Shown: piece by piece, positions 6,263 to 40,874 of the stretch
Layout: each line of letters begins with the position of its first letter
Position numbering within the stretch: position 1 is the stretch's first letter
Assembly (NCBI GenBank): GCA_028408365.1
Contig: JAOOLD010000001.1
Span: 64,450-128,449 of the forward strand
Length of the DNA: 64,000 bases
Direction of reading: 5' to 3'
Origin: Bacteroidota bacterium
GTDB taxonomy: Bacteria; Bacteroidota; Bacteroidia; Flavobacteriales; BACL11
Made by a program: the position numbers and the translations under genes
The notes under the pieces: generated by a model
The model's input: only the letters and a program-made list of their open reading frames with translations
Databases searched by the model: none
What the model was told of the DNA's origin: nothing

Positions 6263-6281
6263 TTTTCAATATATTACAAGT

Positions 6282-9062: not shown

Positions 9063-9150
9063 TTATTAAAAAGTAATTATATTGCCTTATATGAAATATT
9101 TATAACTTGTTGGTTTTCAATACCTTAACTTTAATTTACTATTTTTTGTA

Positions 9151-9158
9151 TATATTTG
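9151..9158 (+). promoter_or_regulatory. -7 promoter box TATATTTG, 4 nt upstream of ATG 9163
   Basis: Exact consensus match. The spacer is TAAA, followed by ATG. This is the first gene of the FN3 / galE / polysaccharide gene string. Confidence 0.45.
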
Positions 9159-9162
9159 TAAA

Positions 9163-10440: not shown

Positions 10441-11425
10441 AGTAATTGTCACTGGTGGCGCAGGATATATAGGTTCACATACTTGTCTTAAACTAATAGA
10501 ATTAGGTTACGAACCTCTTATAATAGACAATCTTTCTAATACAAGTATTGAAAATATAAAGGGGGTTGAAAGCATTACAAATAAAAAATTAAATTTTTAT
10601 GAATTAGACTGCTGTAGTGCTCAAAAGCTTGACATGATCATAAAAAAAGAAAATGGTATAATTGGAGCTATTCATTTTGCAGCATATAAATCAGTTGAAG
10701 AATCAGTAAGAGAGCCTGAAAAATTCTTTTACAACAATTTAAAGTCACTTGAGTCTTTAATTGATGTTATGATTAATCAGAATTTAAATAATTTGATTTT
10801 TTCTTCTTCTTGCACTGTTTATGGTAGTCCAGATAGTTTACCTGTAGATGAAAATGCTCCTTTCAAAAAAGCAGAATCTCCGTATGGAGAAACAAAACAA
10901 CTCTGCGAAAAAATCATTGAAAAATCAACGCTATTTAGTGTTTGTCTTAGATATTTTAATCCAATCGGTTCGCACAATAGCGGATTAATTGGTGACAGAT
11001 CTGCTGATAAGCCAGCAAATTTAGTACCAATAATATGCGAAGTAGCCTATGGAAAAAGAGAGAAATTAATAATTAATGGCAATGATTATAATACAAAAGA
11101 TGGGACTTGTGTTAGAGATTATATTCATGTTGAGGATTTGGCACTAGCACACATAAACGCGCTTGAGTACTGTATCAAAAATAAGAGTAAGAGTATATTT
11201 AACATAGGTACTGGCCAAGGTTTATCAGTAGCTGAAACTGTTAGGATTTTTGAGGAATGTAATAATATTAAAGTAAATTTAGAGTATGGGCCCAGACGAA
11301 CTGGTGATGTCGCTGAAATATACTCTGACACTAAAAAATCTAGTAAATATCTAAAGTGGAAATCAGAAAAATCCATTTCAGATGCATTAAAAAGTGCTTG
11401 GAACTGGGAGCTAAATAAAACTTAA
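10433..11425 (+). CDS. galE: UDP-glucose (or UDP-GlcNAc) 4-epimerase
   Basis: 330 aa SDR with VIVTGGAGYIGSH, a catalytic S...Y-G-x-x-K block (SPYGETK) and RYFNPIG. Confidence 0.85.
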   Translation: MNKVIVTGGAGYIGSHTCLKLIELGYEPLIIDNLSNTSIENIKGVESITNKKLNFYELDCCSAQKLDMIIKKENGIIGAIHFAAYKSVEESVREPEKFFYNNLKSLESLIDVMINQNLNNLIFSSSCTVYGSPDSLPVDENAPFKKAESPYGETKQLCEKIIEKSTLFSVCLRYFNPIGSHNSGLIGDRSADKPANLVPIICEVAYGKREKLIINGNDYNTKDGTCVRDYIHVEDLALAHINALEYCIKNKSKSIFNIGTGQGLSVAETVRIFEECNNIKVNLEYGPRRTGDVAEIYSDTKKSSKYLKWKSEKSISDALKSAWNWELNKT

Positions 11426-11467: not shown

Positions 11468-12073
11468 ATGAAAAACATTAAAGAACATAGCTACAAAATT
11501 TCAAAAAAAGACAGAGAAAATTTACACAATCATAGTTCTGCTCTTATTTGGTTTACTGGCCTATCTGGCTCGGGCAAGTCGACACTTGCAAATTTACTTG
11601 AACAAGAGCTACATAATCTAAAAATATCTACTTTTGCATTGGATGGTGATAACATAAGGCATGGCCTAAATAAAGATTTGGGCTTTTCATCAGATGATAG
11701 AAGTGAGAATATAAGAAGAATTGGAGAGGTCGCAAAATTATTGACACACGCAGGAATACTAACTATTGCGGCTTTTGTATCACCATTTAAAAAAGATAGA
11801 GAAATAGTAAAAAATATAGTTGGTTCAGATCATTTTATCGAAATCTATGTAAATGCTAGTCTTGCTGAGTGCGAAAAAAGGGATACTAAAGGGTTGTACA
11901 AAAAAGCTAGAAATGGTGAGATAAAAAATATGACAGGTATTTCTTCTGCATATGAAGCGCCAGAAAATCCAACTTTAGAAATTGATACAAACAAGGAAAC
12001 AATTGATGAATCAATGCAAAAAATCAAAAAATGCATAATAAAAAAGCTTAAATATGGTAAATTATATAATTGA
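11468..12073 (+). CDS. cysC: Adenylyl-sulfate (APS) kinase
   Basis: 201 aa with the P-loop [14 protein letters not shown], plus [17 protein letters not shown] and FVSPF motifs. Confidence 0.9.
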
Positions 12074-12959
12074 TCATCTCAAAGAGTTAGAATCAGAAGC
12101 TATTTTTGTTATTAGAGAAATTGCTTCACAATTTGAAAATCCTGCATTACTATTTTCTGGAGGAAAAGATTCGATTATACTTACTCACTTAGCAAAAAAA
12201 GCATTCTATCCTGCCAAAATACCATTTCCGCTAATTCATATTGACACAGGTCATAACTTCCCCGAAACCATAAAATTTAGAGATGATTTAGTTAATGGAC
12301 TTGGAGTTAATTTAATTGTCGGCTTAGTGCAAGAAAGCATAGATAAGGGGCTTGTCAAAGAAGAAACTGGAGTAGATGCGTCAAGAAATTCTCTTCAAAT
12401 AGCTACACTTCTTGAAACATTGGAGGTTAACAAAATTGATGGTGCAATGGGAGGCGCAAGACGGGATGAGGAAAAAGCCAGAGCCAAAGAAAGATTTTTT
12501 TCTCATAGAGATGAATTTGGTCAATGGGATCCAAAAAATCAAAGACCAGAATTGTGGAATTTATTTAACGGAAGAAAAAACTATGGAGAACACTTTAGGA
12601 TTTTTCCAATTTCTAACTGGACAGAAATGGATGTGTGGGAATACATAAAGTTAGAAAAAATAGAACTGCCAAGTCTTTATTTTTCTCATCAAAGAGAATG
12701 TATAATCAGAGACAATATTATCCTTGCGAATTCAAATTTTATTCAGCTTAAAGATAATGAAGAGGTCAAAAAATTAACTGTGAGATTTAGAACATGCGGA
12801 GATATGCCAATCACTGGAGCAGTAGAATCAAAAGCAAATAATATTGACGATATAATAAAAGAAGTTGCTACTACGAGAACTACAGAAAGAGGAGGAAGAG
12901 CCGATGACAAAAGAGCTGAAACAGCCATGGAGGACAGAAAAAAACAAGGGTATTTTTAA
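12054..12959 (+). CDS. cysD: Sulfate adenylyltransferase subunit 2
   Basis: 301 aa with the PAPS-reductase-like fold motif LFSGGKDS, plus [14 protein letters not shown] and a C-terminal EDRKKQGYF. Confidence 0.93.
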
Positions 12960-14221
12960 TGAATAGAAACAAAAAAGAATTATTAAGATTTACTACAGCA
13001 GGTAGTGTTGATGATGGTAAGAGTACATTAATTGGAAGACTTTTGTATGACAGTAAATCAATTTTTCAAGATCAACTAGATGCTGTTGAACGCACCAGTA
13101 AAAATAAAGGATTTGACTACGTAGATTTATCATTACTAACAGATGGGTTAAGGTCTGAAAGAGAGCAAGGCATTACAATAGATGTTGCATATAGATACTT
13201 TGCAACTCCTAAAAGAAAGTTTATCATAGCCGACACACCAGGGCATATTCAATATACTCGTAATATGGTGACCGGAGCCTCTACGGCCAACTTAGCAATC
13301 ATACTTATAGATGCAAGGAAAGGAATGCTTGAACAAACTCATAGACACTCATTTATAGCTTCACTTTTAGGTATTCCTCATGCAATTGTATGTATAAACA
13401 AAATGGACCTTGTAAATTATGATAAAAAAGTATATGACAAAATAGTAAGTGATTTCAAAGCTTTTTCATCAAAACTAGAAGTAAGAGATGTTCAATTTAT
13501 TCCGATTTCAGCATTAAATGGTGACAACGTAGTAAATAGGTCAAAAAATATGACTTGGTATGAGGGGAGCACTTTGCTATATCATTTAGAAAATGTACAT
13601 ATTTCTAGCGACTATAACCAAATTGATTGTAGATTTCCTGTTCAAACAGTAATTAGACCACATACTAAAGAACATCAAGACTATCGTGGTTTTGCTGGAA
13701 GAATTGATGGTGGAATATTTAAAGTTGGTGATAAAATAAAAACATTGCCAACTGGATTCACATCAAAAATAAAAAGCATCTGCTCGCACAATACAGAACT
13801 AAATGAGGCTTACACACCCATGTCAGTGAACATAGTACTTGAAGACGAAATTGATATTAGTAGAGGTGATATGATAGTGCGAGAAAATAATATACCGAAC
13901 GTTAGTCAGGACATTGAATTATTAGTTACTTGGATGAATCAGAATCCCTTGGCCAGCAGAAAAAAAGTTATAATTAAGCATACAACAAATGAATGTGTTG
14001 GACTTGTCAGAGAGTTAAAATATAAAATTGATATTAACACTCTTCACAGAATTGAAAATGTAGAATCTATACAAATGAATGACATTGCTAGAATATCAAT
14101 TAGAACCTCAAAGCCTCTATTTTTTGATAGCTACAAAAAAAATAGAAGAACTGGAAGTTTAATCTTAATAGATGAACAAACTAATGAAACTATTGGAGCA
14201 GGAATGATAATTAACAAATAA
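12959..14221 (+). CDS. cysN: Sulfate adenylyltransferase subunit 1 (GTPase), not fused to an APS kinase
   Basis: 420 aa with GTPase motifs GSVDDGKST, DTPGH and NKMD. TAATG 1-nt overlap with cysD. Confidence 0.93.
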   Translation: MNRNKKELLRFTTAGSVDDGKSTLIGRLLYDSKSIFQDQLDAVERTSKNKGFDYVDLSLLTDGLRSEREQGITIDVAYRYFATPKRKFIIADTPGHIQYTRNMVTGASTANLAIILIDARKGMLEQTHRHSFIASLLGIPHAIVCINKMDLVNYDKKVYDKIVSDFKAFSSKLEVRDVQFIPISALNGDNVVNRSKNMTWYEGSTLLYHLENVHISSDYNQIDCRFPVQTVIRPHTKEHQDYRGFAGRIDGGIFKVGDKIKTLPTGFTSKIKSICSHNTELNEAYTPMSVNIVLEDEIDISRGDMIVRENNIPNVSQDIELLVTWMNQNPLASRKKVIIKHTTNECVGLVRELKYKIDINTLHRIENVESIQMNDIARISIRTSKPLFFDSYKKNRRTGSLILIDEQTNETIGAGMIINK

Positions 14222-20382: not shown

Positions 20383-21329
20383 CAAAAAATGTTAAAATTT
20401 ACGTTGCTGGGCATCATGGAATGGTTGGGTCTGCAGTCTTAAGAGCTTTAAAATCATACGGCTATTACAATATAGTTGGAAAAGCAAAAAAAGAATTGAA
20501 TTTAAGAAATCAAAATGATGTAAATGATTTTTTTGATTATCATAAGCCAGATGTTGTAATAAATGCTGCTGCTAAAGTCGGTGGAATTTTAGCTAACAAT
20601 GAATATCCTTATAATTTTTTAATGGAAAACATGCAAATTCAAAATAATTTGATTGACGGCGCATTTAAATCTAAAGTGAAAAAATTTATTTTTCTGGGAA
20701 GTTCTTGTATATACCCAAAGTTTGCGCCTCAGCCCTTAAAAGAAGAATATTTATTGACAAGCTCTTTAGAGCCAACTAATGAATGGTACGCAATTGCCAA
20801 AATAGCTGGAGTTAAAGCATGCGAATCAATAAGAAAGCAATTTGGTAAAGATTATATTAGCCTTATGCCTACTAACTTATATGGTTTTAACGACAACTTT
20901 GATTTAAAGTCCTCACATGTTTTGCCAGCAATGATTCGTAAATTTCATGAAGCTAAGATAGAGAGTCATAAGCCTGTAACACTTTGGGGTAGTGGAAGTC
21001 CCAAGCGCGAGTTTCTATATGTAGATGATCTAGCTGAAGCTGTAATTTACTTTCTAGAAAATAAATTTTCAAAACATTTTTACAATATTGGAACTGGTAA
21101 AGACATAAGCATTAAGATGCTTGCTGAACTAGTTCAAAAAGTTGTTGGTCATAATGGGGAAATTACTTGGGATAATTCAAAGCCAGATGGAACTCCAAGA
21201 AAACTTCTGGACATATCTAGAGCGGAAAAGGTAGGTTGGACATTCAAAACTAATCTAGATGAAGGTATTGATAAAACATACAACTGGTTTTTAAAAAATT
21301 TAAATAACTTTAAAGAAGTTAAATTATGA
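20379..21329 (+). CDS. fcl: GDP-L-fucose synthase
   Basis: 316 aa with [31 protein letters not shown] and NLYG motifs. ATGA overlaps on both sides. Confidence 0.9.
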
Positions 21330-22417
21330 AAGTAGCACTAATTACTGGCGTCACAGGTCAAGATGGCTCATATTTAGCAGAGCTATTACTTAATAAAGGG
21401 TACATGGTTCATGGAATTAAGAGAAGAGCCTCTTCTTTTAATACTCAGAGAATTGACCATATATATCAAGACCCTCACGAGGAAAATCCAAGATTTAAAT
21501 TACATTATGGTGATTTGACTGATTCATTAAATATTACTAAAATTATAAAACTTTGTCAACCGGATGAAATATATAATCTAGGCGCTATGTCTCATGTTAA
21601 AGTGTCATTTGACGTACCTGAATATGTGGGGCAAGTTGATGGGCTGGGAACACTTAGAATACTGGAAGCAGTTCGATTACTTGGCTTGGAGAAAAAAACT
21701 AGAATATACCAAGCCTCTACATCTGAACTTTACGGAGGCATGCAGGGTAACAAAAATGCAAAGGGGTTTTACGACGAGCAATCGACTTTTCATCCTAGAT
21801 CTCCTTACGGTGTTGCAAAATTATATGGGTTTTGGATTACTAAACATTATCGTGAAGCTTACAAGATGTTTGCATGTAATGGAATATTATTCAACCATGA
21901 ATCACCTCGAAGAGGTGAAACTTTTGTAACTCGTAAAATAACTCGTGCTGTTGCTAAAATTGCATTAGGAAAAAAAGATAAGTTTTATTTGGGTAATCTT
22001 GACGCCAAAAGAGATTGGGGGCATGCAAAAGATTACGTAAGAATGATGTGGATGATTTTACAAGCAGAAACAGCTGAGGATTGGGTTATTGCAACATCAG
22101 AAACTACTAGCGTCAGGGATTTTGTAATATTAGCATTTAGAGAAGTTGGTATTGAAATTGAATTTAAGGGTAAAGGATTGGATGAAAAAGCCTTTGTGGT
22201 CGCATGCAACAACAAAAATTATCAAATAACATTAGGCAAAGAAGTTTTATCTATTGATCCACAATATTTTAGACCAACAGAAGTAGATTTGTTAATAGGC
22301 GACCCATCTAAAGCTAAAAACAAACTAGGATGGGAACCCGAATTTAAGATTACTGATTTGGTTGCTGACATGATGAATTCTGATCTATTAATTTTTTCAA
22401 AAAAATACAATGTTTAA
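21326..22417 (+). CDS. gmd: GDP-mannose 4,6-dehydratase
   Basis: 363 aa with [35 protein letters not shown] and [10 protein letters not shown]. Confidence 0.95.
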
Positions 22418-23432
22418 AAATAAAACCTTATTAATAACTGGAGGAACAGGTTCTTTTGGTAATGCTGTTCTAAATTACTTTGTTCAATCTAAAATTAAAG
22501 AAATAAGAGTCTTTAGTAGAGATGAGAAAAAACAAGAGGACATGCGTATTAATCATAAAGATGACAAAATTAACTTTATTATTGGTGATGTAAGGGATTA
22601 TCAAAGCATAAGTAATGCAATGAGTGGCGTTGATTATGTATTTCATGCTGCGGCTCTTAAGCAAGTTCCTTCATGTGAATTTTTTCCAACTGAAGCTATA
22701 AAAACTAATATTCTTGGTGCTGAAAATGTTTTAGAGGCTGCAGCTAATAATAATGTAAAAAAAGTAATTGTTTTAAGCACTGATAAGGCTGTATACCCAA
22801 TTAACACTATGGGAATTTCTAAAGCAATGATGGAAAAGCTTGCTGTAAGTAAGGCAAGAGATTCTAGAGTAATAAATAATAAGGCTGTAATTTGTGCAAC
22901 TAGATATGGAAATGTCATGTGTTCAAGAGGCTCAATAATTCCTCTATTTATTAAACAAATCAAAGAAGGTAAAGACCTTACAATTACAAACCCAAAAATG
23001 ACAAGATTTATGATGTCATTAGCTGATTCTGTGAATTTGGTATTGTTCGCGTTTAAAAATGCTAACCCTGGCGATATATTTGTCCAAAAATCTCCAGCTA
23101 CAACTATCGAGACTTTAGCGAAAGCGCTATTAGAACTGTTTAATGCAAACAACAAAATTAAAATAATTGGAGCAAGACATGGAGAAAAAATGTATGAATC
23201 TTTATGTGCTAAAGAGGAAATGTCAAAGGCTGACGATTTAGGCAGCTTTTTCAGAATACCAGCAGATTTTCGAGATTTAAACTATACAAAATACTTGAAG
23301 AAGGATGGTCCCAAACTACAAGAAAAAGAATATAATTCAGACAATACTAAACGTCTTAACGTTAAAGAGCTAAAGCATCTTTTGTTAACACTTGATGATG
23401 TCAAAGAAGAGTTGAGGAAAAATAGTAATTAA
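22410..23432 (+). CDS. UDP-N-acetylglucosamine 4,6-dehydratase/5-epimerase, CapE/FnlA/WbjB type
   Basis: 340 aa and near-colinear with S. aureus CapE as I remember it. Matching blocks are [39 protein letters not shown], and [21 protein letters not shown] with the MxxxK variant of Yxxx[12 protein letters not shown] and EYNSDNT also match. Confidence 0.85.
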
Positions 23433-23434
23433 AA

Positions 23435-24520
23435 ATGATTCCTATAGTTAAACCTTACATTCCACCTCGAAATCAATTAATGCCTGCTTTGCAGAAAACT
23501 ATCTACTCTGGTTATATTGCTCAAGGCAAAAAAGTAGAAGATTTTGAAAAAATGTTAGGTCAGTATTTTGAAAATAACAAAGTGCTGACTGTTAACTCAG
23601 GGACATCTGCTCTTCATTTGTCTTTAATACTTGCAAACGTTGGTCCTGGCGATGAAGTAATATCAACCGCCTTGACAGCGGAGCCAACAAATACAGCAAT
23701 TTCCCAAACTGGTGCTAAGGTTGTATGGGCAGATATTGAACGGTCAACTGGACTGATATGTCCAAAATCAGCTGAGAAACTAATAAACAACAAAACCAAA
23801 GCTATTATGATTGTTCATTATGCAGGCATGGTTGCTAATTTAAATAAGTTTTATAGTATTAGAAAAAAATATAATATTCCTATAATTGAAGACTGTGCTC
23901 ATGCTTTTGGGGCTGAGTACAAAAATAAAAAGCTTGGATATTGCTCTGATTTTGCTATTTATTCTTTCCAAGCTATAAAACATCTGACAACAATTGATGG
24001 GGGATTATTAATTCTTAAAAAATCTTCTGACTATGATCGTGCAAAAAAACTAAGATGGTTTGGGTTAGATAAAACAAAACCAAGACTAAAGAATAATATA
24101 ACTGAGTGTGGATTTAAGTACCACATGAATGATGTGAACGCCACTTTCGGACTCATTCAATTAAATTATCTAAAAGAGAACGTAAATAAATATATTGAGA
24201 ATGGATTATTTTTTGATAGAGAATTAAAAGATGTTGATGGGATACAAATTATTAAATACCATGATGATACTAAACCATCCTATTGGCTATATACAGCTAT
24301 GGTTGACAGAAAAGATGATTTTATTGAACATATGAACAGCAACGGTATACAGTGCTCTTCTTTACACTTGAGAAACGATAGACATTCAATTTTTGAGGAT
24401 GGTTCTCATTTGAAAGGATTAGAATCCTTTTATGGAAATTATGTTCACTGGGGGTGCGGATGGTGGATCACAGAAAAAAATCGAAATAAAATCGTTGAAC
24501 TGATAAAAAAAGGGTGGTAA
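23435..24520 (+). CDS. DegT/DnrJ/EryC1/StrS-family sugar aminotransferase (canonical)
   Basis: 361 aa with IIEDCAHAFG and the PLP-lysine block YSFQAIKHLTTIDGG. That lysine is K182, codon AAA at 23978-23980. Confidence 0.85.
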   Translation: MIPIVKPYIPPRNQLMPALQKTIYSGYIAQGKKVEDFEKMLGQYFENNKVLTVNSGTSALHLSLILANVGPGDEVISTALTAEPTNTAISQTGAKVVWADIERSTGLICPKSAEKLINNKTKAIMIVHYAGMVANLNKFYSIRKKYNIPIIEDCAHAFGAEYKNKKLGYCSDFAIYSFQAIKHLTTIDGGLLILKKSSDYDRAKKLRWFGLDKTKPRLKNNITECGFKYHMNDVNATFGLIQLNYLKENVNKYIENGLFFDRELKDVDGIQIIKYHDDTKPSYWLYTAMVDRKDDFIEHMNSNGIQCSSLHLRNDRHSIFEDGSHLKGLESFYGNYVHWGCGWWITEKNRNKIVELIKKGW

Positions 24521-25594
24521 ATGATTCCAATTTTCAAACCATACATGCCTGAGAACGTTACAGAGGGAATAAATAAAATTCTTTACTCTGGCTCATTATC
24601 TTATGCAAAATATGGTAAGAAATTTGAAAAAGATCTTTCTAGATATATTGGCTGTAAAAATATTTTGACAATAAGTTCTTATAACCAAGCAATGATGGTT
24701 CTTTTATCTACATTGGAGCTAAATAAAAATGATGAAATAATAGCATCACCTGTTAGTTGTCTTGCTTCAAACCAACCTTTTGCAACTAGGGGCCTTAAAG
24801 TAGTTTGGGCTGATATTAATCCACATAAAGGGACCTTGTGCGTTGATGATGTAAAGTCAAAAATAACTTCGAAAACAAAAGCAATATTCCATAATCATTT
24901 TTGTGGCTATTTAGGTAATGTTAATGAGATTAATTCTTTAGGAAATGAGTTTGGCATACCAGTAATTGACGATTGTATTGAAGCTTTTGGATCAATTCTT
25001 AATAATAAAAAAAGTGGAAATTTAGGTACAGATATATCTGTTTTTTCATTTCAAACTGTGCGATTACCAAATACAATTAACGGCGGCGGATTAGTTTTTA
25101 GTGATGATAAACTGTTTGAAAAGGCAAAAAAAATAAGAGATTATGGTATAGATCGAAGTAAGTTTAGAGATTCTATTAATGAAATTAATGTAGATTGCGA
25201 TATAAAAATTGAGGGTTATGGAGCTTTAATGAGCGAGTTAAATTCATTTATAGGTTCGTGTCAATTAGAAGAAATTTCAAAATTAATCAAACAACATGAA
25301 AAAAATGCTGAAATATGGAACTCAAGAATAAATAGATTTAAAAATATTAAGCCAATCGAAATAACTAATAATTCTTCACCAAATTATTGGGTTTACGGAA
25401 CATTATCAAAAAATAAATATGAAAGTATTAGAAAATTTAGAGACATGGGTTTTTATGCAAGTGGTGTACATATAAATAATAATATTTATTCGATTTTTAA
25501 TAATAAGATTGAATTAAAAGGGGTCAGTGAATTTATTAGTCGCTTTGTTGCGCTTCCATGTGGCTGGTGGTTTAACTTATCAAATATTGAATAA
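24521..25594 (+). CDS. DegT-family paralog lacking the PLP Schiff-base lysine (Lys->Arg)
   Basis: 357 aa. It is a clear tandem paralog of the upstream gene (MIPIFKPYMPE vs MIPIVKPYIPP; VVWADI in both; CGWW near both C-termini). The aligned block reads FSFQTVRLPNTINGG, with R181 (codon CGA at 25061-25063) where the lysine should be. Confidence 0.8.
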   Translation: MIPIFKPYMPENVTEGINKILYSGSLSYAKYGKKFEKDLSRYIGCKNILTISSYNQAMMVLLSTLELNKNDEIIASPVSCLASNQPFATRGLKVVWADINPHKGTLCVDDVKSKITSKTKAIFHNHFCGYLGNVNEINSLGNEFGIPVIDDCIEAFGSILNNKKSGNLGTDISVFSFQTVRLPNTINGGGLVFSDDKLFEKAKKIRDYGIDRSKFRDSINEINVDCDIKIEGYGALMSELNSFIGSCQLEEISKLIKQHEKNAEIWNSRINRFKNIKPIEITNNSSPNYWVYGTLSKNKYESIRKFRDMGFYASGVHINNNIYSIFNNKIELKGVSEFISRFVALPCGWWFNLSNIE

Positions 25595-26369
25595 GAAAAA
25601 GAAAATAAAGATTGCTTTTGCAGCAAGCAGAGATTTGGGACATATTTTAATTTCGTGGATTAAAAAAAATGAAGAGTTACACCAAATTGAAATTGTTGGA
25701 GGCGTAGCTGTTAATTATAAGAATTGGTGGGATGACAAAATTGAAAAATTATATCTTTCTAAAAACATAAAACCTTTCAAATGCATTAAAGAATTAATAG
25801 AACAAACCAATCCTGATCTCATTTTTTCTTTTAATTATTGGAAAATTATTCCCAAAAAACTTTTTGATAAAGTTCCAAATGGAATAATTAATATTCATCA
25901 CTCTTACAAACTGAGATTTAGAGGAAGATATTCAACAAGTTGGGCTATTGTTCGTGCTAGGAAAGATAACAATTGGTGGCACGGAACATCTATTCATTAT
26001 ATAAATGAAAACCTAGATGAGGGGTCAATTATCCTTACTGAAAAAATCCCTATTTTAAAAAACGATACATCTGAAACACTTTTTAAAAAAGTTCAGGATT
26101 TGTCGATTAAATTGTTTAAAGAAAACTTTTCATTTATAATTGATAATTCAAATAAAAAAATAATTAAAAATGATAATAAATATTATTTCTATGATAGTGG
26201 TTCTAAGAACAACATTATACTTCCCGATAATGTAACAAAAGAAGAGATTTTAGATTACGTTAGAGCATGGACATTTAAAGACAGGGCGTTACCCGTGGTA
26301 AAGTATAGAGGAAAAGCTATTTCGTTAAGTATTCTAGCCAAGCAAGTAAGCAATTTAAAAGATGAATAA
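25587..26369 (+). CDS. Sugar N-formyltransferase (Fmt/PurN-like N-terminal domain)
   Basis: The formyltransferase skeleton N-x-H-x-S-x5-R-G is present as NIHHSYKLRFRG, with a downstream Asp in ENLDEGSII. The start is uncertain. I prefer TTG 25587 (MNKKKKIKIAFAAS), which overlaps the upstream stop by 8 nt, over the track's GTG at 25527. Confidence 0.7.
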   Translation: MNKKKKIKIAFAASRDLGHILISWIKKNEELHQIEIVGGVAVNYKNWWDDKIEKLYLSKNIKPFKCIKELIEQTNPDLIFSFNYWKIIPKKLFDKVPNGIINIHHSYKLRFRGRYSTSWAIVRARKDNNWWHGTSIHYINENLDEGSIILTEKIPILKNDTSETLFKKVQDLSIKLFKENFSFIIDNSNKKIIKNDNKYYFYDSGSKNNIILPDNVTKEEILDYVRAWTFKDRALPVVKYRGKAISLSILAKQVSNLKDE

Positions 26370-30910: not shown

Positions 30911-32054
30911 TTTTTTAGATTATCGAATTCCAATTTATGAAGAGATAAATAGGCTTTCTAATAACCAATTAATTGTCATATACAATGCAGAAGTAACTCC
31001 TTTAAGATGTCAAGAAGGTTTGAAGAAAATTTTAGGCTCTAGAGCAGTTGGTTTAAAAGGAGAAATTAGATTCGGTGGAAAAAAAATTGAAAATCAAACT
31101 TTTGCAAATAAAGGTGGTCTAAGAATTCCTTTACTACCTGGTTTAATAAATAAAATCAAAAAATCAGAACCAGATATTATATTATCAGATGGTTTTTTTC
31201 AATGGACATATGCAGCATTAATAAATAATGCAATATGGCAAACTCCGCATTTAATGCTTTATGAGAGAACCAAACATACAGAAAGAAACGTTTCTTTTCT
31301 TAGATATTATTTAAGACAAATTGCCTCAAAATTTATTACAGCAATTTCATGTAATGGAATTCAAACAAAAGAGTATTTACAAGAATTTGGTATTGCTGAA
31401 AAGAAATTATTTATTGGTAATATGGCCGCAGATAGTTCTGGACTTCAAAATGCTATTTCTAAAATTTCAAAAAATGAAATTTTAAAATTAAAGAAAAGCT
31501 TCAATTTAAAAGAAGATGTATTTTTATTTGTGGGGCAATTAATTCCAAGAAAAGGAGTGATTGAATTAATTAAAGCTTGGAAAGATTTTGAAAAAAATTT
31601 TTCAAACGCGTCTTTAGTTCTATTAGGAAGTGGAGAACAGTTAGAATTGGCAAGTGATTTGTTGAACAAAAATCGAATTAATAATGTGTGTTTACCAGGC
31701 AAAGTAGATTATTCAGAAGTTGCAACGTTTTATGCAGTCGCCGATATTTTTATTATTCCTACATTAGAGGATAATTGGTCATTGGTTGTTCCAGAAGCAA
31801 TGAGCTGTAGCCTTCCAATAATTTGTTCAAAATATAATGGCTGTTGGCCCGAATTGGTAAAAAAAGAAAATGGTTGGGTGTTTGATCCATTGGATACTAG
31901 TAATTTTAATCATACACTTAATTTAGCGTATAAAAACAAAGAGAAATGGAAAGAAATGGGTGAATCCTCTGCAAAAATAGTATCAGATTTTTCTACCGAA
32001 AAAATTGCAAATAAGATTGTTAACTCATGTAAAGAGATTATTTCAGATAAATAA
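30885..32054 (+). CDS. Glycosyltransferase family 4 (GT-B, retaining)
   Basis: 389 aa with FVGQLIPRKG and the EX7E-type block LEDNWSLVVPEAMSCSLPIICS. Confidence 0.85.
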   Translation: MKITWVTRSFLDYRIPIYEEINRLSNNQLIVIYNAEVTPLRCQEGLKKILGSRAVGLKGEIRFGGKKIENQTFANKGGLRIPLLPGLINKIKKSEPDIILSDGFFQWTYAALINNAIWQTPHLMLYERTKHTERNVSFLRYYLRQIASKFITAISCNGIQTKEYLQEFGIAEKKLFIGNMAADSSGLQNAISKISKNEILKLKKSFNLKEDVFLFVGQLIPRKGVIELIKAWKDFEKNFSNASLVLLGSGEQLELASDLLNKNRINNVCLPGKVDYSEVATFYAVADIFIIPTLEDNWSLVVPEAMSCSLPIICSKYNGCWPELVKKENGWVFDPLDTSNFNHTLNLAYKNKEKWKEMGESSAKIVSDFSTEKIANKIVNSCKEIISDK

Positions 32055-32055
32055 A

Positions 32056-33384
32056 ATGAATATTACTGATTACATTTTCTTAAAGCGTTATTCCCTTGCA
32101 AAAAATGGAGCTTTGGATGCATATAAAACAGCTATTTTAAATCAAAGAATGGATGAAAGTGCACTCAACGAGTTAGTTTGGGAAAAAACAAAAAAATTAG
32201 TTTCTCACGCTTATGCGAATGTTAGTTGGTATAAAGACAAATTTGATGAATTAGGTTTACATCCATTTGACATAACTAAGCCTGAGTATTTTGGTCAAAT
32301 CCCAATCTTAAAACGTCATGAAATTATTAATAATTTCGACAAATTTATATCGAAAGGTGTTACATCTAAAAATCTTAAATTTATTACAACTGGCGGTTCC
32401 TCTGGTAAACCATTGAAAATTGGGGTAAGTAAAAGAAGGATTAGAGAAATTCAAAAATGGCAAATGTTTGATTGGTGGAATGTTCCACTAAATGCAAATA
32501 TGGCAAGTATATATAGAGGTGTTCCAGTAAATGGATTAAAGAAGTTAGCATTAAGTTTTATAAATTGGCCGCAAAAAATTATTAGACTAGATGCGGCAAA
32601 AATTACTTCACATAATATAAGGCAATTTATTCATCAATATAGAAAAGTTCGTCCAAAATTAATTCACGGTTATGTTGGTGCTCTCGATGCTTTAGCAGAT
32701 TATATTTTAGAAAATAATATCAAGTTTGACTTTAAACCAAATTCAATTTGGTGTACCGCTGCTCCAATTTCAGTTGTACAAGAAAATAAGATTTCAAAGG
32801 CTTTCAACGCACCTGTTTGTGATCAATACGGTTGTAGCGAGTTATATTTTGTTTCAGCAGAATGTTCACATAAAAGAGGATTGCATATTTTTTCAGATTC
32901 TGTTAAAGTTGAGATTGTTGATTATAGAGGACAAGCAGTTCGTAATGATCTCTATGGGAATATTATTCTTACAAATTTAGATGAATATGCATTCCCATTA
33001 ATTAGATATGAAAATGGGGATAGAGGAAGAATTTTAGATGACAAATGTTCATGTGGAATGACTTTACCACTTATGGATAAAGTTAAAGGAAGAATTTCTG
33101 ACAATATTAATCTCCCAAACAGTGTAGTTTTATCTGGTGAATACCTAACAACAATATTTGACAATCATACAGATTATGTGAAGCAGTTTCAGATAATTCA
33201 AAAGAAAGATTTAAGTCTAAAGATAAAGGTTAAGCTATCTAACAGTAATTATACAGATTTAATAAAAAAATTTTTAGAACGTGAATTAGGTGAAAAAATT
33301 AACAATCAAGTTGGTTATACTATCGATTTTGTTGATGAAATATTTTCAGATAAAGGAAAACTTAGATTTATAATTAAAGAATGA
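32056..33384 (+). CDS. CapK / phenylacetate-CoA-ligase-like adenylate-forming enzyme
   Basis: 442 aa from ATG 32056; the track's upstream extension overlaps the previous gene. It has the AMP-binding P-loop TTGGSSGKPLK, a later ENGDRG block and a C-terminal GKLRFI. Confidence 0.75.
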   Translation: MNITDYIFLKRYSLAKNGALDAYKTAILNQRMDESALNELVWEKTKKLVSHAYANVSWYKDKFDELGLHPFDITKPEYFGQIPILKRHEIINNFDKFISKGVTSKNLKFITTGGSSGKPLKIGVSKRRIREIQKWQMFDWWNVPLNANMASIYRGVPVNGLKKLALSFINWPQKIIRLDAAKITSHNIRQFIHQYRKVRPKLIHGYVGALDALADYILENNIKFDFKPNSIWCTAAPISVVQENKISKAFNAPVCDQYGCSELYFVSAECSHKRGLHIFSDSVKVEIVDYRGQAVRNDLYGNIILTNLDEYAFPLIRYENGDRGRILDDKCSCGMTLPLMDKVKGRISDNINLPNSVVLSGEYLTTIFDNHTDYVKQFQIIQKKDLSLKIKVKLSNSNYTDLIKKFLERELGEKINNQVGYTIDFVDEIFSDKGKLRFIIKE

Positions 33385-34568
33385 CCATGAAAATCCTTTT
33401 TGTACATAATAATTACGCCAGCAATAACAGCGGTGAGGAACATGCCTCTCAAGCGTTAGCAACTTTATTAATTGCAAATGGTCATAAAGTTGATTGGTAT
33501 AGAAAGAGCTCAGACATTATAAAAGATTCTGTATGGATGAAGATGAAAGCTTTTATCTTCGGAATATACAATCCTTACGCTGTTAAAGATTTGATGGCAA
33601 AAATAAATCAGTTTTCGCCAGACATTATTCAATGTCAAAATTTATATCCTTTTATTTCTCCAGCTATTATTAAACCAATTAAAAAGTTAAACATTCCTTT
33701 AATAATGAGGTGTCCAAATTATAGATTATTTTGCCCAACAGGCCTTCATCTCGATAGCAGTAATAAAATTTGTGAAAGTTGTTTAACTAAATTAAAAGAG
33801 TTTAACTGTGTTATGAAAAATTGTGAAAAAAATTGGTTTAAATCAATCGGCTATGCACTTCGAAATTTAGTTGCAAGAAAATATTGGAATATTACAAAAT
33901 TGTTCGATGCCTATATTGTTCAAACAGAATTTCAAAAGCAAAAGTTCGTCAAAAATGGTATTTCAAAAGAAAAATTATTTGTTGTTCCAGGGCTAACTCC
34001 TGAAATTAAAGCTATTGACAACAGAAATATTGCTTCAAACTATGTTAGTTTCATAGGCAGAGTCAGTGAAGAAAAAGGAATAGAAGAATTTATTTATGCT
34101 GCGAATAAATTACAAGACATATCATTTAAAGTAGTCGGAGCATACTCAGATTCTTTTATAAACCTAAAACAAAAATCATCTCGCAATGTTGAGTGGACTG
34201 GTTTTATGAGTGGTAAAAATTTAGATGAAATTTTTGTAAAATCTAGAATTATTGTTGTTCCAGGCAAGTGGTATGAAGGGTTTCCAAATGTAATTACTCG
34301 TGCCATGAGACACGGCAAAGCAATTATAACTTCTGATTTAGGAGCAATGTCTTCAATTATTGATCATAAAAAAAATGGACTCTTGGTTAGTGCTGGAGAC
34401 GGAGAATTGTTACATTCAGCTATAAAAAAACTATTTTATGATAAAAGTTTATGCGCTAAATACGGAGAAAATGCAAAGAAAAAAGCATCTGATTATTATT
34501 CAAACAAAATAATTTACGAAAAACTTTTAGATTCTTACAACTACATACTAAATAAAAATGTTATTTAA
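33381..34568 (+). CDS. Glycosyltransferase family 4
   Basis: 395 aa with MKILFVHNNY, FIGRVSEEKG and WYEGFPNVITRAMRHGKAIITSDLG. The start may be ATG 33387. Confidence 0.8.
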   Translation: MTMKILFVHNNYASNNSGEEHASQALATLLIANGHKVDWYRKSSDIIKDSVWMKMKAFIFGIYNPYAVKDLMAKINQFSPDIIQCQNLYPFISPAIIKPIKKLNIPLIMRCPNYRLFCPTGLHLDSSNKICESCLTKLKEFNCVMKNCEKNWFKSIGYALRNLVARKYWNITKLFDAYIVQTEFQKQKFVKNGISKEKLFVVPGLTPEIKAIDNRNIASNYVSFIGRVSEEKGIEEFIYAANKLQDISFKVVGAYSDSFINLKQKSSRNVEWTGFMSGKNLDEIFVKSRIIVVPGKWYEGFPNVITRAMRHGKAIITSDLGAMSSIIDHKKNGLLVSAGDGELLHSAIKKLFYDKSLCAKYGENAKKKASDYYSNKIIYEKLLDSYNYILNKNVI

Positions 34569-35991
34569 CTCTTGGGAATATCTTTTTTTATTTTTAGTAA
34601 CAACAATACTATACTTTAATATATCTCTGAAGTATAGAACATTTTTGCTGCTAATTAGTTCATATATATTTTATATATCTTGGCGCTTAGATTTTGCTCT
34701 TTTAATGCTAGCTGTTACAATGGTAAATTTTTTTGGCGGCATAAAAATCAATGCCTCAAGATCAAAGAAATCAAAGAAATACTGGTTAGCCTTAACAATA
34801 TTTTTATCTCTTATACCACTAATTTATTTTAAGTATTTTAATTTTTTGATTGAGAATATTAATTTCATCATTCCGTTTTTTGATAACAATTTGCAATTAC
34901 CTTATATCGAAATTATCTTACCTGTAGGTATTTCCTTTTTCACATTTCAAGCACTAAGTTACTCTTTGGATGTATATTATGGAAAAACTAATGTTGAGTA
35001 TAATTTCATAAATTTCAGCGGATTTGTAGCTTTTTTTCCTCAACTTGTTGCCGGCCCCATTGAACGCTCTTCAAATTTACTTTCTCAATTTAGAAACAAA
35101 CATTTGTTCCTGAAAGAAAATTTTTTAATTGGAGCAAAATTATTTATATGGGGTTTATTTAAAAAAGTTGTAATTGCGGATCGTCTAGCAATTTATGTTA
35201 ATAATATTTATGATAACCCAGAACTATTTAACTCTGCTACTTTAGCTGTAGCAACAATGTTTTTTGCTTTTCAAATATATTGTGATTTTAGTGGTTATTC
35301 TGATATGGCAATTGGTTCTGCTAAAATTTTAGGGTTTAATCTAAGACAAAACTTCAATTTACCATACCTCGCAAATTCTATTGGAGACTTTTGGAAACGT
35401 TGGCACATATCATTATCGTCTTGGTTTGGAGACTACCTTTATATTCCTCTTGGCGGTAATAGAGTTCGTTACTACAGGTGGGTTATTAATATTTTTCTTG
35501 TTTTTTTACTAAGTGGTTTTTGGCATGGTGCTAGCTGGACTTTTATAATATGGGGCTCATTGCATGCTTTTTACTATTTAGTTGAAAGCTGGGGTGATAA
35601 GTTTCTTAATTTGATTGATTTCAATTTTATTAAAAGGTATTGGGGTTATAAAGTATTTAAGATTTTAACTGTTTTCGTTTTAGTTTGTTTTGCATGGGTT
35701 TTTTTTCGTGCAAATTCAATCACAGATGCCTTCTTTATAATTGATGAAATTTTATCTTTTAAAAAAGGTGATTTATATATTGGCAGTTCAGCTGTTACAT
35801 TTATATTGTCAATATTTTTAATCTTTCTCTTATTAATAGTACAAATAATGCAGTATCTCAAAATTGCATCTATGTACTTTTATAAATCTAAAGCTCCTGC
35901 ATCAATTCAATTTTTATGGTATTTATTAATATGCGTGGCGATATCAACTTTGAGTGTCAGTTCAAATGCCTTTATTTACTTTCAATTTTAA
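34558..35991 (+). CDS. MBOAT-family membrane O-acyltransferase (AlgI/DltB-like)
   Basis: 477 aa with MLFNSWEYL, FWKRWHISLSSWFGDYLYIPLGGNR and the catalytic-His block FLLSGFWHGASW. Confidence 0.9.
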   Translation: MLFNSWEYLFLFLVTTILYFNISLKYRTFLLLISSYIFYISWRLDFALLMLAVTMVNFFGGIKINASRSKKSKKYWLALTIFLSLIPLIYFKYFNFLIENINFIIPFFDNNLQLPYIEIILPVGISFFTFQALSYSLDVYYGKTNVEYNFINFSGFVAFFPQLVAGPIERSSNLLSQFRNKHLFLKENFLIGAKLFIWGLFKKVVIADRLAIYVNNIYDNPELFNSATLAVATMFFAFQIYCDFSGYSDMAIGSAKILGFNLRQNFNLPYLANSIGDFWKRWHISLSSWFGDYLYIPLGGNRVRYYRWVINIFLVFLLSGFWHGASWTFIIWGSLHAFYYLVESWGDKFLNLIDFNFIKRYWGYKVFKILTVFVLVCFAWVFFRANSITDAFFIIDEILSFKKGDLYIGSSAVTFILSIFLIFLLLIVQIMQYLKIASMYFYKSKAPASIQFLWYLLICVAISTLSVSSNAFIYFQF

Positions 35992-37740: not shown

Positions 37741-38508
37741 ATGAAATGGTTTGTTCTTTTAATAACATGTGCATTAATAACCTCATGCTCGACTAAAAAT
37801 CAGTTGATATATCTAAAAGATTCAAAAAAAGAAGAAGCAAATTCATGGGCTAAATACTCTGAAATAGATAATTTAATTCAAAAAGGAGATATTTTAAAGA
37901 TTGATATTCACACTGCTATTTCTGAAGCCTCAGTAGCTTACAATAGAAATAATCCCAAAAGTGTTTCAAACAACATAGATTTGTTAATGTTAGATGGGTA
38001 TTTAGTAGATGAAAATATGACAATAAACTTTCCTATACTAGGAAAAATCAGCGTAGAAAAACTAAATGAAACTAAACTTGAGGAAAAGATAAAATCACTT
38101 TTGATAAAAGGAAATCATCTTACAAAGCCAACTGTAAAAATAACTAGACTAAATAATAAATTTACTGTTTTGGGAGAGGTGAAAAATCCAGGCACATTTT
38201 CGTACATTAATAAAGAGTTGAATATTCTACAGGCACTTGGATATGCGGGTGATATTACTATTGATGGTAAAAGAAAAGATGTAACATTAATTAGAGAAAA
38301 AAATGGCAAAAGAAAAATCTTTAATATTGAACTAACAAAATCTGATTTTTTAGAAAGCCCTGTATATAAAATAAGAAATAATGATGTCATAATTATAAAC
38401 CCAAATTTTAGTAAAGTTAAAAGTGCTGGATTTATTGGCAGTCCTACTTCTATCGCTTCAATTGCATCTATTCTACTTAGCATCACGTTATTAATTACAA
38501 ATAATTAA
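37741..38508 (+). CDS. wza: Polysaccharide export outer-membrane lipoprotein (Wza family)
   Basis: 255 aa with the lipobox LITSCS, a Poly_export motif (GDILKIDI ... TVLGEVKNPG) and a SLBB-like segment. Confidence 0.85.
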   Translation: MKWFVLLITCALITSCSTKNQLIYLKDSKKEEANSWAKYSEIDNLIQKGDILKIDIHTAISEASVAYNRNNPKSVSNNIDLLMLDGYLVDENMTINFPILGKISVEKLNETKLEEKIKSLLIKGNHLTKPTVKITRLNNKFTVLGEVKNPGTFSYINKELNILQALGYAGDITIDGKRKDVTLIREKNGKRKIFNIELTKSDFLESPVYKIRNNDVIIINPNFSKVKSAGFIGSPTSIASIASILLSITLLITNN

Positions 38509-38510
38509 AC

Positions 38511-40874
38511 ATGAACAGCCAACAAGAAAATTTTGATTTGAATCAAAGTACAGATGATGGTTTAGATTTGAAAAAGTCGTTTTTCAAATACTTCTATTAT
38601 TGGAAGTTTTTTGTTGTAAGTTGTTTACTTACGATGATTGCTGCATATTCATATTTAAGATACACTCCTAATGTTTACAGCGTATCTGCTAAAATTAAGA
38701 TTATTGATGAAAAAGATTACTCACTTGAACTTCCTTCAGCTTCCAATTTATTAAATAAATCTAAAATCAATTTAGAAAACAGTGTTGAAATTTTATCATC
38801 ATATCCAATACTAAGCCAAGTAGTTAAAAATAAAAATCTAAATATCTCTGTTTATGAAGCAGGTAATGTAATCAAATCATTGACAGTAAATTACCCATTT
38901 GAAATAATACCAACTTTACCTATTGATAGTTTATTATACTACAAATTCAAAATTGATATCACTGAGCAAGGATTTGAGATTATTGACTTTCAAAAAGATG
39001 AAAAAAAATATAATTTTAACGGAATCTCAACAAAAAAATATAAACATAACCTTCCTTTTGAAATCGTAAATTTTAATAAAGAGCTTTACGTTGCTGATAA
39101 AGGATATTACTTTAGCTTTCTTCCTACTTATGATGTGGTACAATCATTGAAAAAATCAATTCAAGTTTCTCAAGTTGGTAATGAAAGTGATATTATTCAA
39201 TTAGAATTAAAATCAACAAGTTCAGAATATTCAAAGATTGTTATAAATGAAGTCATAAAAGTTTTTAATAATGACGGAATAAGTGACCGTCGTTTAGTAC
39301 ATAAAAGAACTATAGATTTTGTTAATGAGAGATACGCATTTCTTTCTTTAGAGCTAGACTCGATTGAAGTGTCAAAACAGCAGTATAAAGTTAACAATGA
39401 TTTGGTTGATTTTGAAATTAACTCTAATATTTCATTAGAAAAAAGTTCTGCATCTAAGGATAATATATTTTCAACTGAGAACCAAATTTTTCTTACCAAT
39501 CTATTAATTAATACTCTAGGTGACAGTCAACTTAAATTACTGCCGTCCAATTTAGGTATTGAAAACAGTGAGATAAATCTACTAATATCAAATTATAATC
39601 AATTTATTCTAGATAGAAAAAAGTTAGTTATTAGTGCTGGATCAAATAATCCTTCCTTAGCATATATTGATGATTTAATTTATGAAGGGAAAAAGAATAT
39701 AATTTTTTCTTTACAAAACCATCTTTCACAACTTAAAAATTTAAAGAATAAACTAAACTTTAAAGTTGAAGAGTATGATAGTCAAGTATCAAATTTACCT
39801 AAAAAAGAAAAAATACTTAGAGCTATAGAGCGTAATCAGCAAATTAAAGAAGCTCTTTATTTATTTCTACTACAAAAAAGAGAAGAGGCAGAAGTTAGTT
39901 ATGCTGTAACTGAGCCTAGCATTAAGGTTGTAGAGTATGCAATGATAGATAGTTCTCCAGTATCCCCAAGAAGAAATACAATTTATATTGTTGCGTTTAT
40001 TATGGGGCTTCTGACACCTTTTTTTACAATTTATTTCTCATTTCTATTGAACAGAAAAATATTTTCTAAAAATCAATTTCAAGAGCTTGGGATTCCTATT
40101 CCCTTAATTGGAGAAGTTCCTGAGATCACAGATCAGCCAAATAAAATAATTTTGTCGTCCGAAGAAAGATCACCACTTGCAGAGTCATTTAGAGTATTGT
40201 GCTCTAATTTGAAGTTTTTTACTAAAAAAACTAATGATTGTCAAGTTATAATGGTAACCTCAACAATTAAAGGTGAAGGTAAAACATTTTGTGCCACAAA
40301 TATTGCATTTACTAAAGCTTCACTTGGTAAAAAAGTTCTTCTCATTGGGGCTGATTTGCATAACCCTCAGATTCATTCTTATCTTGATTTAGAAAAAAAT
40401 ATTAATGGACTAGTTAATTATTTAGTTGATGACAGTTTTGATTGGAAGAAGTCATTATTGAGACCTAATTCATCTTTAAATTGTGACGTTATGCTATGCG
40501 GGCAAATTCCTCCTAATCCTGCACAGCTGCTAAATAATAGTAGTTTTAAAAAATTAATTGATGAGGCAAAAAACTCTTATGACTTTATAGTTATAGATAC
40601 ACCACCTTGCTTATTGGTTTCAGACACATTAAGTATTAGTTATTTATCTGATTTGCTTTTATTTGTTGTACGCTGTAATCATACGAAAATTGAAGTCCTT
40701 GATTTCTTAAAGGACATTCATAAAAAAGGAGTTATTAAAGATAATTCTATGATAATTCTTAATGGAATAGGTGCTAACAATAAATATGGTTACGGTTACG
40801 CTTACAATTATAACTATAGTTATAAATATGGATATAATTATGGATATGGGTATGAATACAACTCTTCAGAATGA
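38511..40874 (+). CDS. wzc: Polysaccharide co-polymerase / tyrosine autokinase (Wzc, PCP-2a)
   Basis: 787 aa with a Wzz-like N-terminal domain carrying two TM helices. It has the Walker A motif TSTIKGEGKT and VIDTPP (Walker B-like). The C-terminal Tyr cluster is YGYGYAYNYNYSYKYGYNYGYGYEY. Confidence 0.88.
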   Translation: MNSQQENFDLNQSTDDGLDLKKSFFKYFYYWKFFVVSCLLTMIAAYSYLRYTPNVYSVSAKIKIIDEKDYSLELPSASNLLNKSKINLENSVEILSSYPILSQVVKNKNLNISVYEAGNVIKSLTVNYPFEIIPTLPIDSLLYYKFKIDITEQGFEIIDFQKDEKKYNFNGISTKKYKHNLPFEIVNFNKELYVADKGYYFSFLPTYDVVQSLKKSIQVSQVGNESDIIQLELKSTSSEYSKIVINEVIKVFNNDGISDRRLVHKRTIDFVNERYAFLSLELDSIEVSKQQYKVNNDLVDFEINSNISLEKSSASKDNIFSTENQIFLTNLLINTLGDSQLKLLPSNLGIENSEINLLISNYNQFILDRKKLVISAGSNNPSLAYIDDLIYEGKKNIIFSLQNHLSQLKNLKNKLNFKVEEYDSQVSNLPKKEKILRAIERNQQIKEALYLFLLQKREEAEVSYAVTEPSIKVVEYAMIDSSPVSPRRNTIYIVAFIMGLLTPFFTIYFSFLLNRKIFSKNQFQELGIPIPLIGEVPEITDQPNKIILSSEERSPLAESFRVLCSNLKFFTKKTNDCQVIMVTSTIKGEGKTFCATNIAFTKASLGKKVLLIGADLHNPQIHSYLDLEKNINGLVNYLVDDSFDWKKSLLRPNSSLNCDVMLCGQIPPNPAQLLNNSSFKKLIDEAKNSYDFIVIDTPPCLLVSDTLSISYLSDLLLFVVRCNHTKIEVLDFLKDIHKKGVIKDNSMIILNGIGANNKYGYGYAYNYNYSYKYGYNYGYGYEYNSSE

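Follow-up and report, generated by a model that had tools for sequence, protein, structure and literature searches.

Arginine in place of the Schiff-base lysine in a widespread branch of DegT-family proteins: candidate 3,4-ketoisomerases of nucleotide-sugar pathways

A stretch of 64,000 nucleotides from contig JAOOLD010000001.1 of a Flavobacteriales bacterium (hereafter 'the window') encodes two adjacent proteins of the DegT family, here named DegT1 and DegT2, the second of which carries an arginine (R181) in place of the lysine that forms the Schiff base with pyridoxal 5'-phosphate (PLP). Comparison with its homologs identifies DegT2 as a member of an old, widespread and lysine-less branch of the family, which we refer to as Arg-type or R-type, as opposed to the Lys-bearing K-type represented by DegT1. 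We propose, with a probability that we put at roughly 0.45, that DegT2, along with its named relatives WeiQ, WekF and RhnC, is a 3,4-ketoisomerase, a role arrived at by elimination; somewhat more guardedly, it is tempting to extend this proposal to the entire branch, whose members would then act as nucleotide-sugar 3,4-ketoisomerases on a fold-type I scaffold, dispensing with the Schiff-base lysine and perhaps with PLP as well. The gene cassette to which DegT2 belongs has already been named in Escherichia coli and Acinetobacter; what is added here is a proposed role for the R-type protein that starts from the exchange of Lys for Arg. A search of the literature for Arg-type DegT proteins yielded no description of them.

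The gene pair and its Schiff-base column

The genes of DegT1 (361 residues) and DegT2 (357 residues) lie on the same strand and in the same frame, with the stop codon TAA of the former directly abutting the start codon ATG of the latter. An initial annotation, made from the letters of the DNA alone, had called the two proteins tandem paralogs on the basis of shared strings (MIPIVKPYIPP and MIPIFKPYMPE at the N-termini, VVWADI, and CGWW near the C-termini), all of which are found in DegT1 and DegT2 as quoted. Their clear paralogy is borne out by 31% identity over 357 residues (BLASTP, E = 2e-66) and by a common match to PF01041 (274 bits for DegT1 and 188.3 bits for DegT2, with a cut-off of 19.8). 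K182 of DegT1 (codon AAA, 23978–23980) lies in the Schiff-base block YSFQAIKHLTTIDGG, and the aligned block of DegT2 reads FSFQTVRLPNTINGG, with R181 (codon CGA, 25061–25063) in the same column. This assignment, likewise made in the initial annotation, is upheld alike by (i) the pairwise BLASTP alignment of DegT2 with DegT1, (ii) phmmer alignments with the solved aminotransferases CalS13, AtmS13 and TlmJ, and (iii) a MAFFT alignment including ColD (sequence verified against PDB entry 2GMS), in which His188 of ColD aligns with R181.

An AlphaFold2 model of DegT2 exhibits the DegT fold (pLDDT 81.5), confidence being lowest for residues 179–185 and 210–230, and its nearest solved folds are those of CalS13, TlmJ and AtmS13 (TM-scores 0.85–0.86; 0.86 for CalS13). 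The same three proteins provide the solved structures nearest to DegT2 by sequence (E-values of 1.6e-36 to 9e-31) and share with it the N-terminal MIPL..K and the C-terminal GWW; they differ in having retained the Lys and a canonical phosphate loop, and act on deoxythymidine diphosphate (dTDP) sugars in antibiotic pathways. DegT2 thus belongs to the DegT family by profile and by its fold-type I fold, but lacks the Schiff-base lysine.

Arginine at this column recurs far more often than chance would allow, being shared by all of the 120 best homologs of DegT2, which are 63–98% identical to it, carry the motif FSFQTVRLPNTI[DE]GG and come from marine and freshwater Bacteroidota and other hosts, as well as by 52 of 52 full-length sequences of the R-type clade that are less than 50% identical to one another. 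The possibility of strain-specific decay or of a sequencing error behind R181 was rejected on these grounds, Arg being present in all homologs. Less general is the replacement of an acidic residue by Asn in the subsequent 'NGG', to which the initial annotation had also pointed: it is present in DegT2 of the window, but recurs in only ~4 of the 120 homologs, most of which have Asp or Glu.

When 1.84 billion cluster representatives were searched without a profile, 297 matched DegT2 at E ≤ 1e-30, and the full-length sequences among the 150 best of these comprise 51 of Arg-type, 44 DegT1-type proteins with Lys (motif FSFQAIKHLTT) and 8 others with Lys. In the sequences examined, the column is occupied by Lys or Arg only. 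Column-wise comparison of Arg- and Lys-type sequences revealed no Lys conserved specifically in the Arg clade that could serve as an alternative active-site residue, and the idea of such a residue was rejected; the sole conserved Lys of the clade, K120 of the 'TKAI' strand, is common to the K-type as well. The columns that separate the two types are R181, F215, E221 and I222, the last three being part of a seven-residue insertion, 'FR...GEI'. In a rough neighbour-joining tree, the Arg proteins make up one large clade of two subclades ('VRLPNT' and 'YPNRQIN'), with the DegT1-type clade as its sister and a few Lys-bearing members interspersed among the Arg proteins. DegT2 of the window belongs to the 'VRLPNT' subclade, WeiQ and WekF to the 'YPNR' subclade. 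The Arg state looks derived within the duplicated pair, with the cofactor anchors lost in a stepwise manner.

Judged from the aligned residues, three anchoring points of the DegT2 cofactor site have been remodelled, yet the site as a whole has not been lost. In ColD, we take the cofactor contacts to be Gly56, Ser57, Trp88, Asp159, Glu162, Ser183, His188 and Asn248' (the numbering was confirmed), to which correspond, in this order, Y54, N55, C80, D151, E154, S176, R181 and G234 of DegT2. The Asp facing the pyridine nitrogen (D151) is kept in 52/52 sequences of the Arg clade, and the Ser facing the phosphate (S176) in 46/52. The position of Y54 holds Met, Tyr or Phe in 43/52 but a small residue (Gly, Cys or Ala) in the K-type. 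G234 aligns with the Lys that clamps the phosphate across the subunit boundary (K228 of DegT1), and its position is occupied by Ser, Gly, Ala, Asn or Thr in the Arg clade as compared with Lys or Arg in 45/45 K-type sequences. The position of E154 is Glu in 21/52 Arg-clade sequences. DegT1 retains all canonical features, that is, S55-G56-T57, D153, H156, S177, K182 and the cross-subunit K228.

Several observations concern the architecture of the K-type proteins. Unpaired K-type proteins exist (loci L067 and L070), often with a GNAT domain fused or encoded downstream, and a C-terminal GNAT domain is frequent among K-type proteins (P0175, P0169, P0178 and P0194). Several DegT1-type proteins of 650–740 residues are interrupted by inteins; Intein_splicing and LAGLIDADG domains were confirmed by a scan for P0196 and are given by precomputed Pfam matches for P0414, P0416 and P0418, whereas P0176, P0186 and P0189 were judged from split alignments. 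The 1147-residue P0392 combines a long repetitive N-terminal region with a DegT1-type domain that lacks its first quarter, and is probably a chimera of assembly or gene calling. Natural fusions of DegT1 with DegT2 were not found among the 150 representatives, the long matches being intein proteins or GNAT fusions.

The module and its counterparts

Scanning one genome per species, we found 61 loci in which a K-type gene is followed by an R-type gene, and nearly all of those with enough flanking sequence have the order CapE/FnlA-like dehydratase (73–79% identical), DegT1 ortholog, DegT2. Hosts include the type strains of Flavobacterium psychrophilum and F. columnare, Tenacibaculum, Chryseobacterium, Pedobacter, Chitinophaga and several Acinetobacter species. 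The stop codon of DegT1 and the start codon of DegT2 overlap by 1 nucleotide in 29/57 loci. The partner dehydratase carries the Met-type motif MG[ILM][ST]K, presumably the CapE/FnlA signature, in 50/50 genome loci, and among the 49 loci with full flanks no further family, nor any small cupin-like open reading frame (ORF), recurs in the majority. The gene after DegT2 is variable and may encode a GNAT protein of ~165 residues, an LbH acyltransferase, a formyltransferase-like protein, or sets of FabH, FabG and AMP-ligase for acyl groups on acyl carrier protein. A scan of metagenomes with the DegT1 alignment gave an R-type gene downstream in 18/18 loci having a DegT1 relative of at least 48% identity and downstream sequence (12 pairs adjacent, 6 with an acyltransferase or transposase gene in between); in the same scan, no second DegT was found beside DegT1 relatives of 41% identity or less. 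The co-occurrence is thus strict in both directions and ties the R-type to a single K-type subclade and a single type of dehydratase. Over 1540 pairs, mean identity is 65.9% for DegT1 and 58.6% for DegT2, on which the notion that DegT2 is the more conserved partner was rejected. DegT1 of the window is itself unusually divergent, with a mean of 53.5% to the other orthologs as compared with 65.9% among those.

The cassette of the window (22410–26369; Table 1) is, by sequence, the Bacteroidota counterpart of a module in the E. coli O119 locus (NZ_CP013025), which encodes WekD, WekE (K-type, 45% identical to DegT1), WekF (R-type, YSFYPNRIVNSIEGG, 33% identical to DegT2) and WekG (MGISK, 64%), and thus comprises the same four families, formyltransferase included. 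The dehydratase of the window bears the same MGISK motif, is 64–66% identical to WekG of O119 and WeiS of O109, and scores 507 bits against TIGR04130 (FnlA; below the cut-off of 730) as compared with 316 for PseB. The formyltransferase is 40% identical to WekD (E = 7e-34) and 50% identical to the formyltransferases of loci L002 and L003. Its ORF was listed from a GTG at 25527; the homologs (MRIAFAAS...) point to a TTG at 25587, which overlaps the end of DegT2 by 8 nucleotides and is the probable start.

Table 1. Genes of the cassette, with coordinates in the window
Gene product	Position	Strand	Profile match
CapE/FnlA-type UDP-GlcNAc 4,6-dehydratase/5-epimerase (WekG/WeiS/RhnA homolog)	22410–23432	+	PF02719, 344 bits; PF08485
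DegT1, K-type sugar aminotransferase (WekE/WeiP/RhnB homolog)	23435–24520	+	PF01041, 274 bits
DegT2, R-type lysine-less DegT paralog (WekF/WeiQ/RhnC homolog)	24521–25594	+	PF01041, 188 bits
Sugar N-formyltransferase (WekD homolog)	25587–26369	+	PF00551, 87 bits

Further counterparts are present at the O109 locus (CP042298), with WeiO (GNAT), WeiP (K-type), WeiQ (R-type, YSFYPNRLINTIDGG), wzx and WeiS, and at the O182 locus (L153; E. coli 13E0725, 5147–10624), with genes for a GNAT protein, a K-type and an R-type DegT, wzx and a CapE-like dehydratase; the O182 cluster is predicted from its genes to make an L-RhaN3N-type sugar. DegT1 shares 43–45% identity with WeiP and WekE, and DegT2 31–33% with WeiQ and WekF. 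Like DegT2, WeiQ, WekF and the O182 protein have Arg at the Lys column together with the FR..GEI loop. The dehydratase gene lies downstream in Proteobacteria but upstream in Bacteroidota, and the order GNAT, K-type, R-type, dehydratase recurs for the 'YPNR' subclade in Ralstonia and on a Sphingomonadaceae plasmid. The Acinetobacter genes rhnA, rhnB and rhnC (KL166 and KL224) were named for 33–66% identity to WeiS, WeiP and WeiQ of O109, proteins with a predicted role in making 2,3-diacetamido-2,3,6-trideoxy-L-mannose (PMC9676051). In a review of E. coli O-antigens, both WeiP/WekE and WeiQ/WekF are listed as aminotransferases, and the pathways to UDP-L-RhaNAc3NAc and UDP-L-RhaNAc3NFo (UDP, uridine diphosphate) are declared to be 'not based on experimental data' (PMC7685785). 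In the literature examined, WeiQ, WekF and RhnC are simply listed as aminotransferases, the missing lysine being unmentioned. The cassette, whose existing names had escaped the initial annotation, is tied in these papers to UDP-2-acetamido-3-acylamino-2,3,6-trideoxy-L-mannose, a sugar with nitrogen at C3 and oxygen at C4 (PMC7685785, PMC9676051). By analogy, the predicted product of the window is UDP-2-acetamido-3-formamido-2,3,6-trideoxy-L-mannose (L-RhaNAc3NFo) or a close stereoisomer.

Two other assignments were considered and rejected. A pseudaminic-acid pathway of the PseB/PseC/PseH kind finds no PseG-, PseI- or PseF-type genes among the window ORFs scanned, and the module serves as a UDP-hexose cassette. 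A link to Qui2NAc4NR of F. psychrophilum fails since the strains studied use pglE/pglF and fnlABC, and the type strain carries the module described here. In F. psychrophilum DSM 3660 (L016) and F. columnare ATCC 23463 (L023), the triad of dehydratase, K-type and R-type genes is located at ~5880–9050 and is followed by an LbH acyltransferase gene.

Candidate functions of the R-type protein

The case for an isomerase is built on the chemistry that remains to be assigned. Since the product is a 3-amino-4-hydroxy sugar, the intermediate a 4-keto-3-hydroxy sugar, and the module devoid of a reductase, a keto transposition and one transamination are needed; three of the steps have obvious enzymes, and the lysine-less DegT is the only conserved gene left, so that DegT2 is proposed as the isomerase. 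In the envisaged route, (i) the dehydratase would generate UDP-2-acetamido-2,6-dideoxy-L-hex-4-ulose by 4,6-dehydration and 5-epimerisation, (ii) DegT2 would shift the carbonyl from C4 to C3 through an enediol, without transamination, (iii) DegT1 would place the amine on C3, and (iv) the formyltransferase would N-formylate this amine. Arg181, at the place where Lys and C4' of the cofactor normally face C4 of the sugar, would stabilise the enediolate, and E221 of the clade-specific acidic loop, or another conserved residue, might act as the proton shuttle or base. Analogous dTDP routes proceed from RmlB via FdtA/QdtA and FdtB/QdtB to FdtC or a formyltransferase. The step assigned to DegT2 has the same place in these pathways (dehydratase, isomerase, 3-aminotransferase, N-acetyl- or N-formyltransferase) as that of FdtA, QdtA and Tyl1a; these are, however, small cupins with His bases and a fold unrelated to that of DegT2, and only the proposed function is analogous. 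An isomerase role of DegT2 would account for the lost Lys and the altered phosphate pocket, as well as for the strict co-occurrence in both directions and the absence of a cupin isomerase. Of the three readings offered in the initial annotation (a new dehydratase- or isomerase-type DegT, a dead subunit, or an enzyme dependent on pyridoxamine 5'-phosphate (PMP)), the isomerase half of the first gives the best fit, whereas its dehydratase half fails on residues, partners and product. A PMP-dependent keto shift by a Heyns-type rearrangement was dropped on paper, the secondary-amine adduct being unreleasable without oxidation.

Several points weigh against an isomerase. The sugar 3,4-ketoisomerases known to us are without exception cupins, and we are aware of no precedent on the DegT fold. 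The role is proposed by elimination. The product is known for O109 and O119, whose R-type proteins are 31–33% identical to DegT2 and belong to the other subclade, and the sugar of the window could thus differ. The classical PLP contacts Asp151 (52/52) and Ser176 (46/52) are retained, for which a cofactor-free isomerase does not obviously account; the invariant Asp151 in particular is left unexplained by the model. Finally, the DegT2-like clade has members that keep the Lys, namely P0142 (L068, 2310–3845), which is fused to GNAT and encoded downstream of a DegT1 ortholog, and a protein of locus L069, likewise downstream of a DegT1 ortholog, which keeps both the Lys and the cross-subunit Asn. 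Given these members, the clade may be functionally non-uniform.

Less likely, in our view, but still a serious rival, is the reading of DegT2 as a non-catalytic or auxiliary subunit of a fold-type I heterodimer, shaping or activating the sole Lys-containing site, that of DegT1, in the manner of Ser4 and Ser5. The dead-subunit heterodimer of the initial annotation is favoured by gene order and overlap: in four bacterial classes K precedes R, irrespective of the side on which the dehydratase and acyltransferase genes lie, and stop and start overlap by 1 nucleotide in about half of the loci (29/57). Both proteins are, moreover, paralogs of one subfamily, the FR...GEI loop belongs to a segment reaching the site of the neighbouring subunit, and DegT2 evolves somewhat faster (58.6% as compared with 65.9% mean identity). 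The precedent is SerTA of Serratia sp. ATCC 39006, in which Ser4 is the member of a tandem DegT-type pair without the catalytic Lys (PMC11726168). Ser4 and DegT2 are alike in being lysine-less members of a tandem pair and opposite in their other features: Ser4, a truncated protein, consists of the large domain only, without the Asp and the stacking aromatic residue, but keeps Asn189* and Arg191*, which bind the phosphate of the partner's PLP (PMC11726168), whereas DegT2 is full length, has an invariant Asp151 and has lost the residue to be donated (G234). The heterodimer is further weakened by the lack of special co-evolution, mirror-tree distances of DegT1 and DegT2 being less strongly correlated between the two (r = 0.37; partial correlation 0.18) than with those of the dehydratase (0.47 and 0.51, respectively), and by the interruption of 6/18 metagenome pairs by an acyltransferase or transposase gene. 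It would also leave the required isomerisation without an enzyme. In addition, we know of no such partner for CalS13 and AtmS13, the nearest solved K-type relatives.

The same gap in the pathway counts against an epimerase. That DegT2 performs some other non-transaminating step, for example epimerisation of the 4-keto sugar at C3/C5 or of the amino sugar, with or without non-covalent PLP or PMP, would be consistent with the conservation of D151, S176, C80 and H317 in its own site and with a column restricted to Lys and Arg, which suggests that a positive charge is required; in CapE-type pathways to L-talo and L-galacto sugars, a separate C3 epimerase (CapF/FnlB) is indeed needed. For L-RhaN3N, however, a 3,4-ketoisomerase and an aminotransferase already set C3 and C4, no extra epimerase is called for, and we consider this alternative improbable. 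Far less probable still is a PMP-dependent 3-dehydratase akin to ColD, E1 and SpnQ. These proteins have the DegT fold, a replaced Schiff-base Lys, and the Asp and Ser facing the pyridine nitrogen and the phosphate in common with DegT2 (D151 and S176), ColD acts on a 4-keto-6-deoxy nucleotide sugar as DegT2 would, Glu154 aligns with Glu162 of ColD, and SpnQ adjoins SpnR as DegT2 adjoins a true aminotransferase. Yet all three have His at the column and not Arg, ColD keeps the Gly56-Ser57 phosphate loop and Asn248', both of which DegT2 has lost, and Glu154 is not conserved (21/52). ColD yields a 3-deoxy sugar, whereas the sugar associated with the E. coli modules keeps its substituents at C3 (nitrogen) and C4 (oxygen) (PMC7685785). 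Nor does the Gmd gene that the initial annotation had singled out as a source of substrate support a dehydratase. It is located upstream as described, ~1–2 kb away (21326–22417), but adjoins Fcl, with which it goes, and accompanies the module only occasionally, the conserved partner being a Met-type UDP-GlcNAc dehydratase in 50/50 loci. A ColD-like dehydratase fed by Gmd was rejected on residues, partners and product alike. Equally remote is the prospect that DegT2 is still an aminotransferase, carrying out a second transamination in line with its database and review annotation, or that it is a decaying pseudogene or sequencing variant: there is neither a Schiff-base Lys nor a substitute for it, the product has one added amino group only, the reading frame is unbroken, its conservation extends across phyla, and the Arg is invariant.

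Surroundings of the module and implications

Other genes of the window relate to the polysaccharide as a whole. Directly upstream of the sugar-nucleotide genes, at 11468–14221, are genes for an adenosine 5'-phosphosulfate (APS) kinase, a member of the 3'-phosphoadenosine 5'-phosphosulfate (PAPS) reductase family (CysD-like) and a GTPase (CysN-like), which hint that the polysaccharide may be sulfated. At 32005–35991, after the polymerase gene, follow an ORF of 459 residues without a Pfam match at 1e-4, a gene for a glycosyltransferase of family GT4 and one for an MBOAT acyltransferase, and Wza/Wzc-type export genes are located at 37741–40874. Elsewhere, in a gammaproteobacterial metagenome-assembled genome (L045, 9072–12513), the module and an LbH acyltransferase gene abut FlgL-like and FlgK genes; this module may serve flagellin glycosylation.

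Hundreds of Arg-type genes are annotated as "aminotransferase" or "perosamine synthetase" without the residue that defines this chemistry. If DegT2 proved to be a partner subunit, it would be part of only the second known heteromeric sugar aminotransferase, and of a different design. If the proposed 3,4-ketoisomerase function is true, a pathway given without experimental support in the review of E. coli O-antigens gains a concrete and testable mechanism, and the way in which many Bacteroidota and Proteobacteria make 2,3-diamino-2,3,6-trideoxy-L-hexoses would find an explanation. Arg at the Lys column in combination with the FR..GEI loop would then constitute a sequence marker predicting 3-amino-L-sugars in O-antigens and capsules of fish pathogens (Flavobacterium psychrophilum, F. 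columnare and Tenacibaculum), Acinetobacter, Ralstonia, and E. coli O109, O119 and O182. Moreover, sugar 3,4-ketoisomerisation would have a second, unrelated scaffold, convergent with the cupins, and the DegT fold a new catalytic function.

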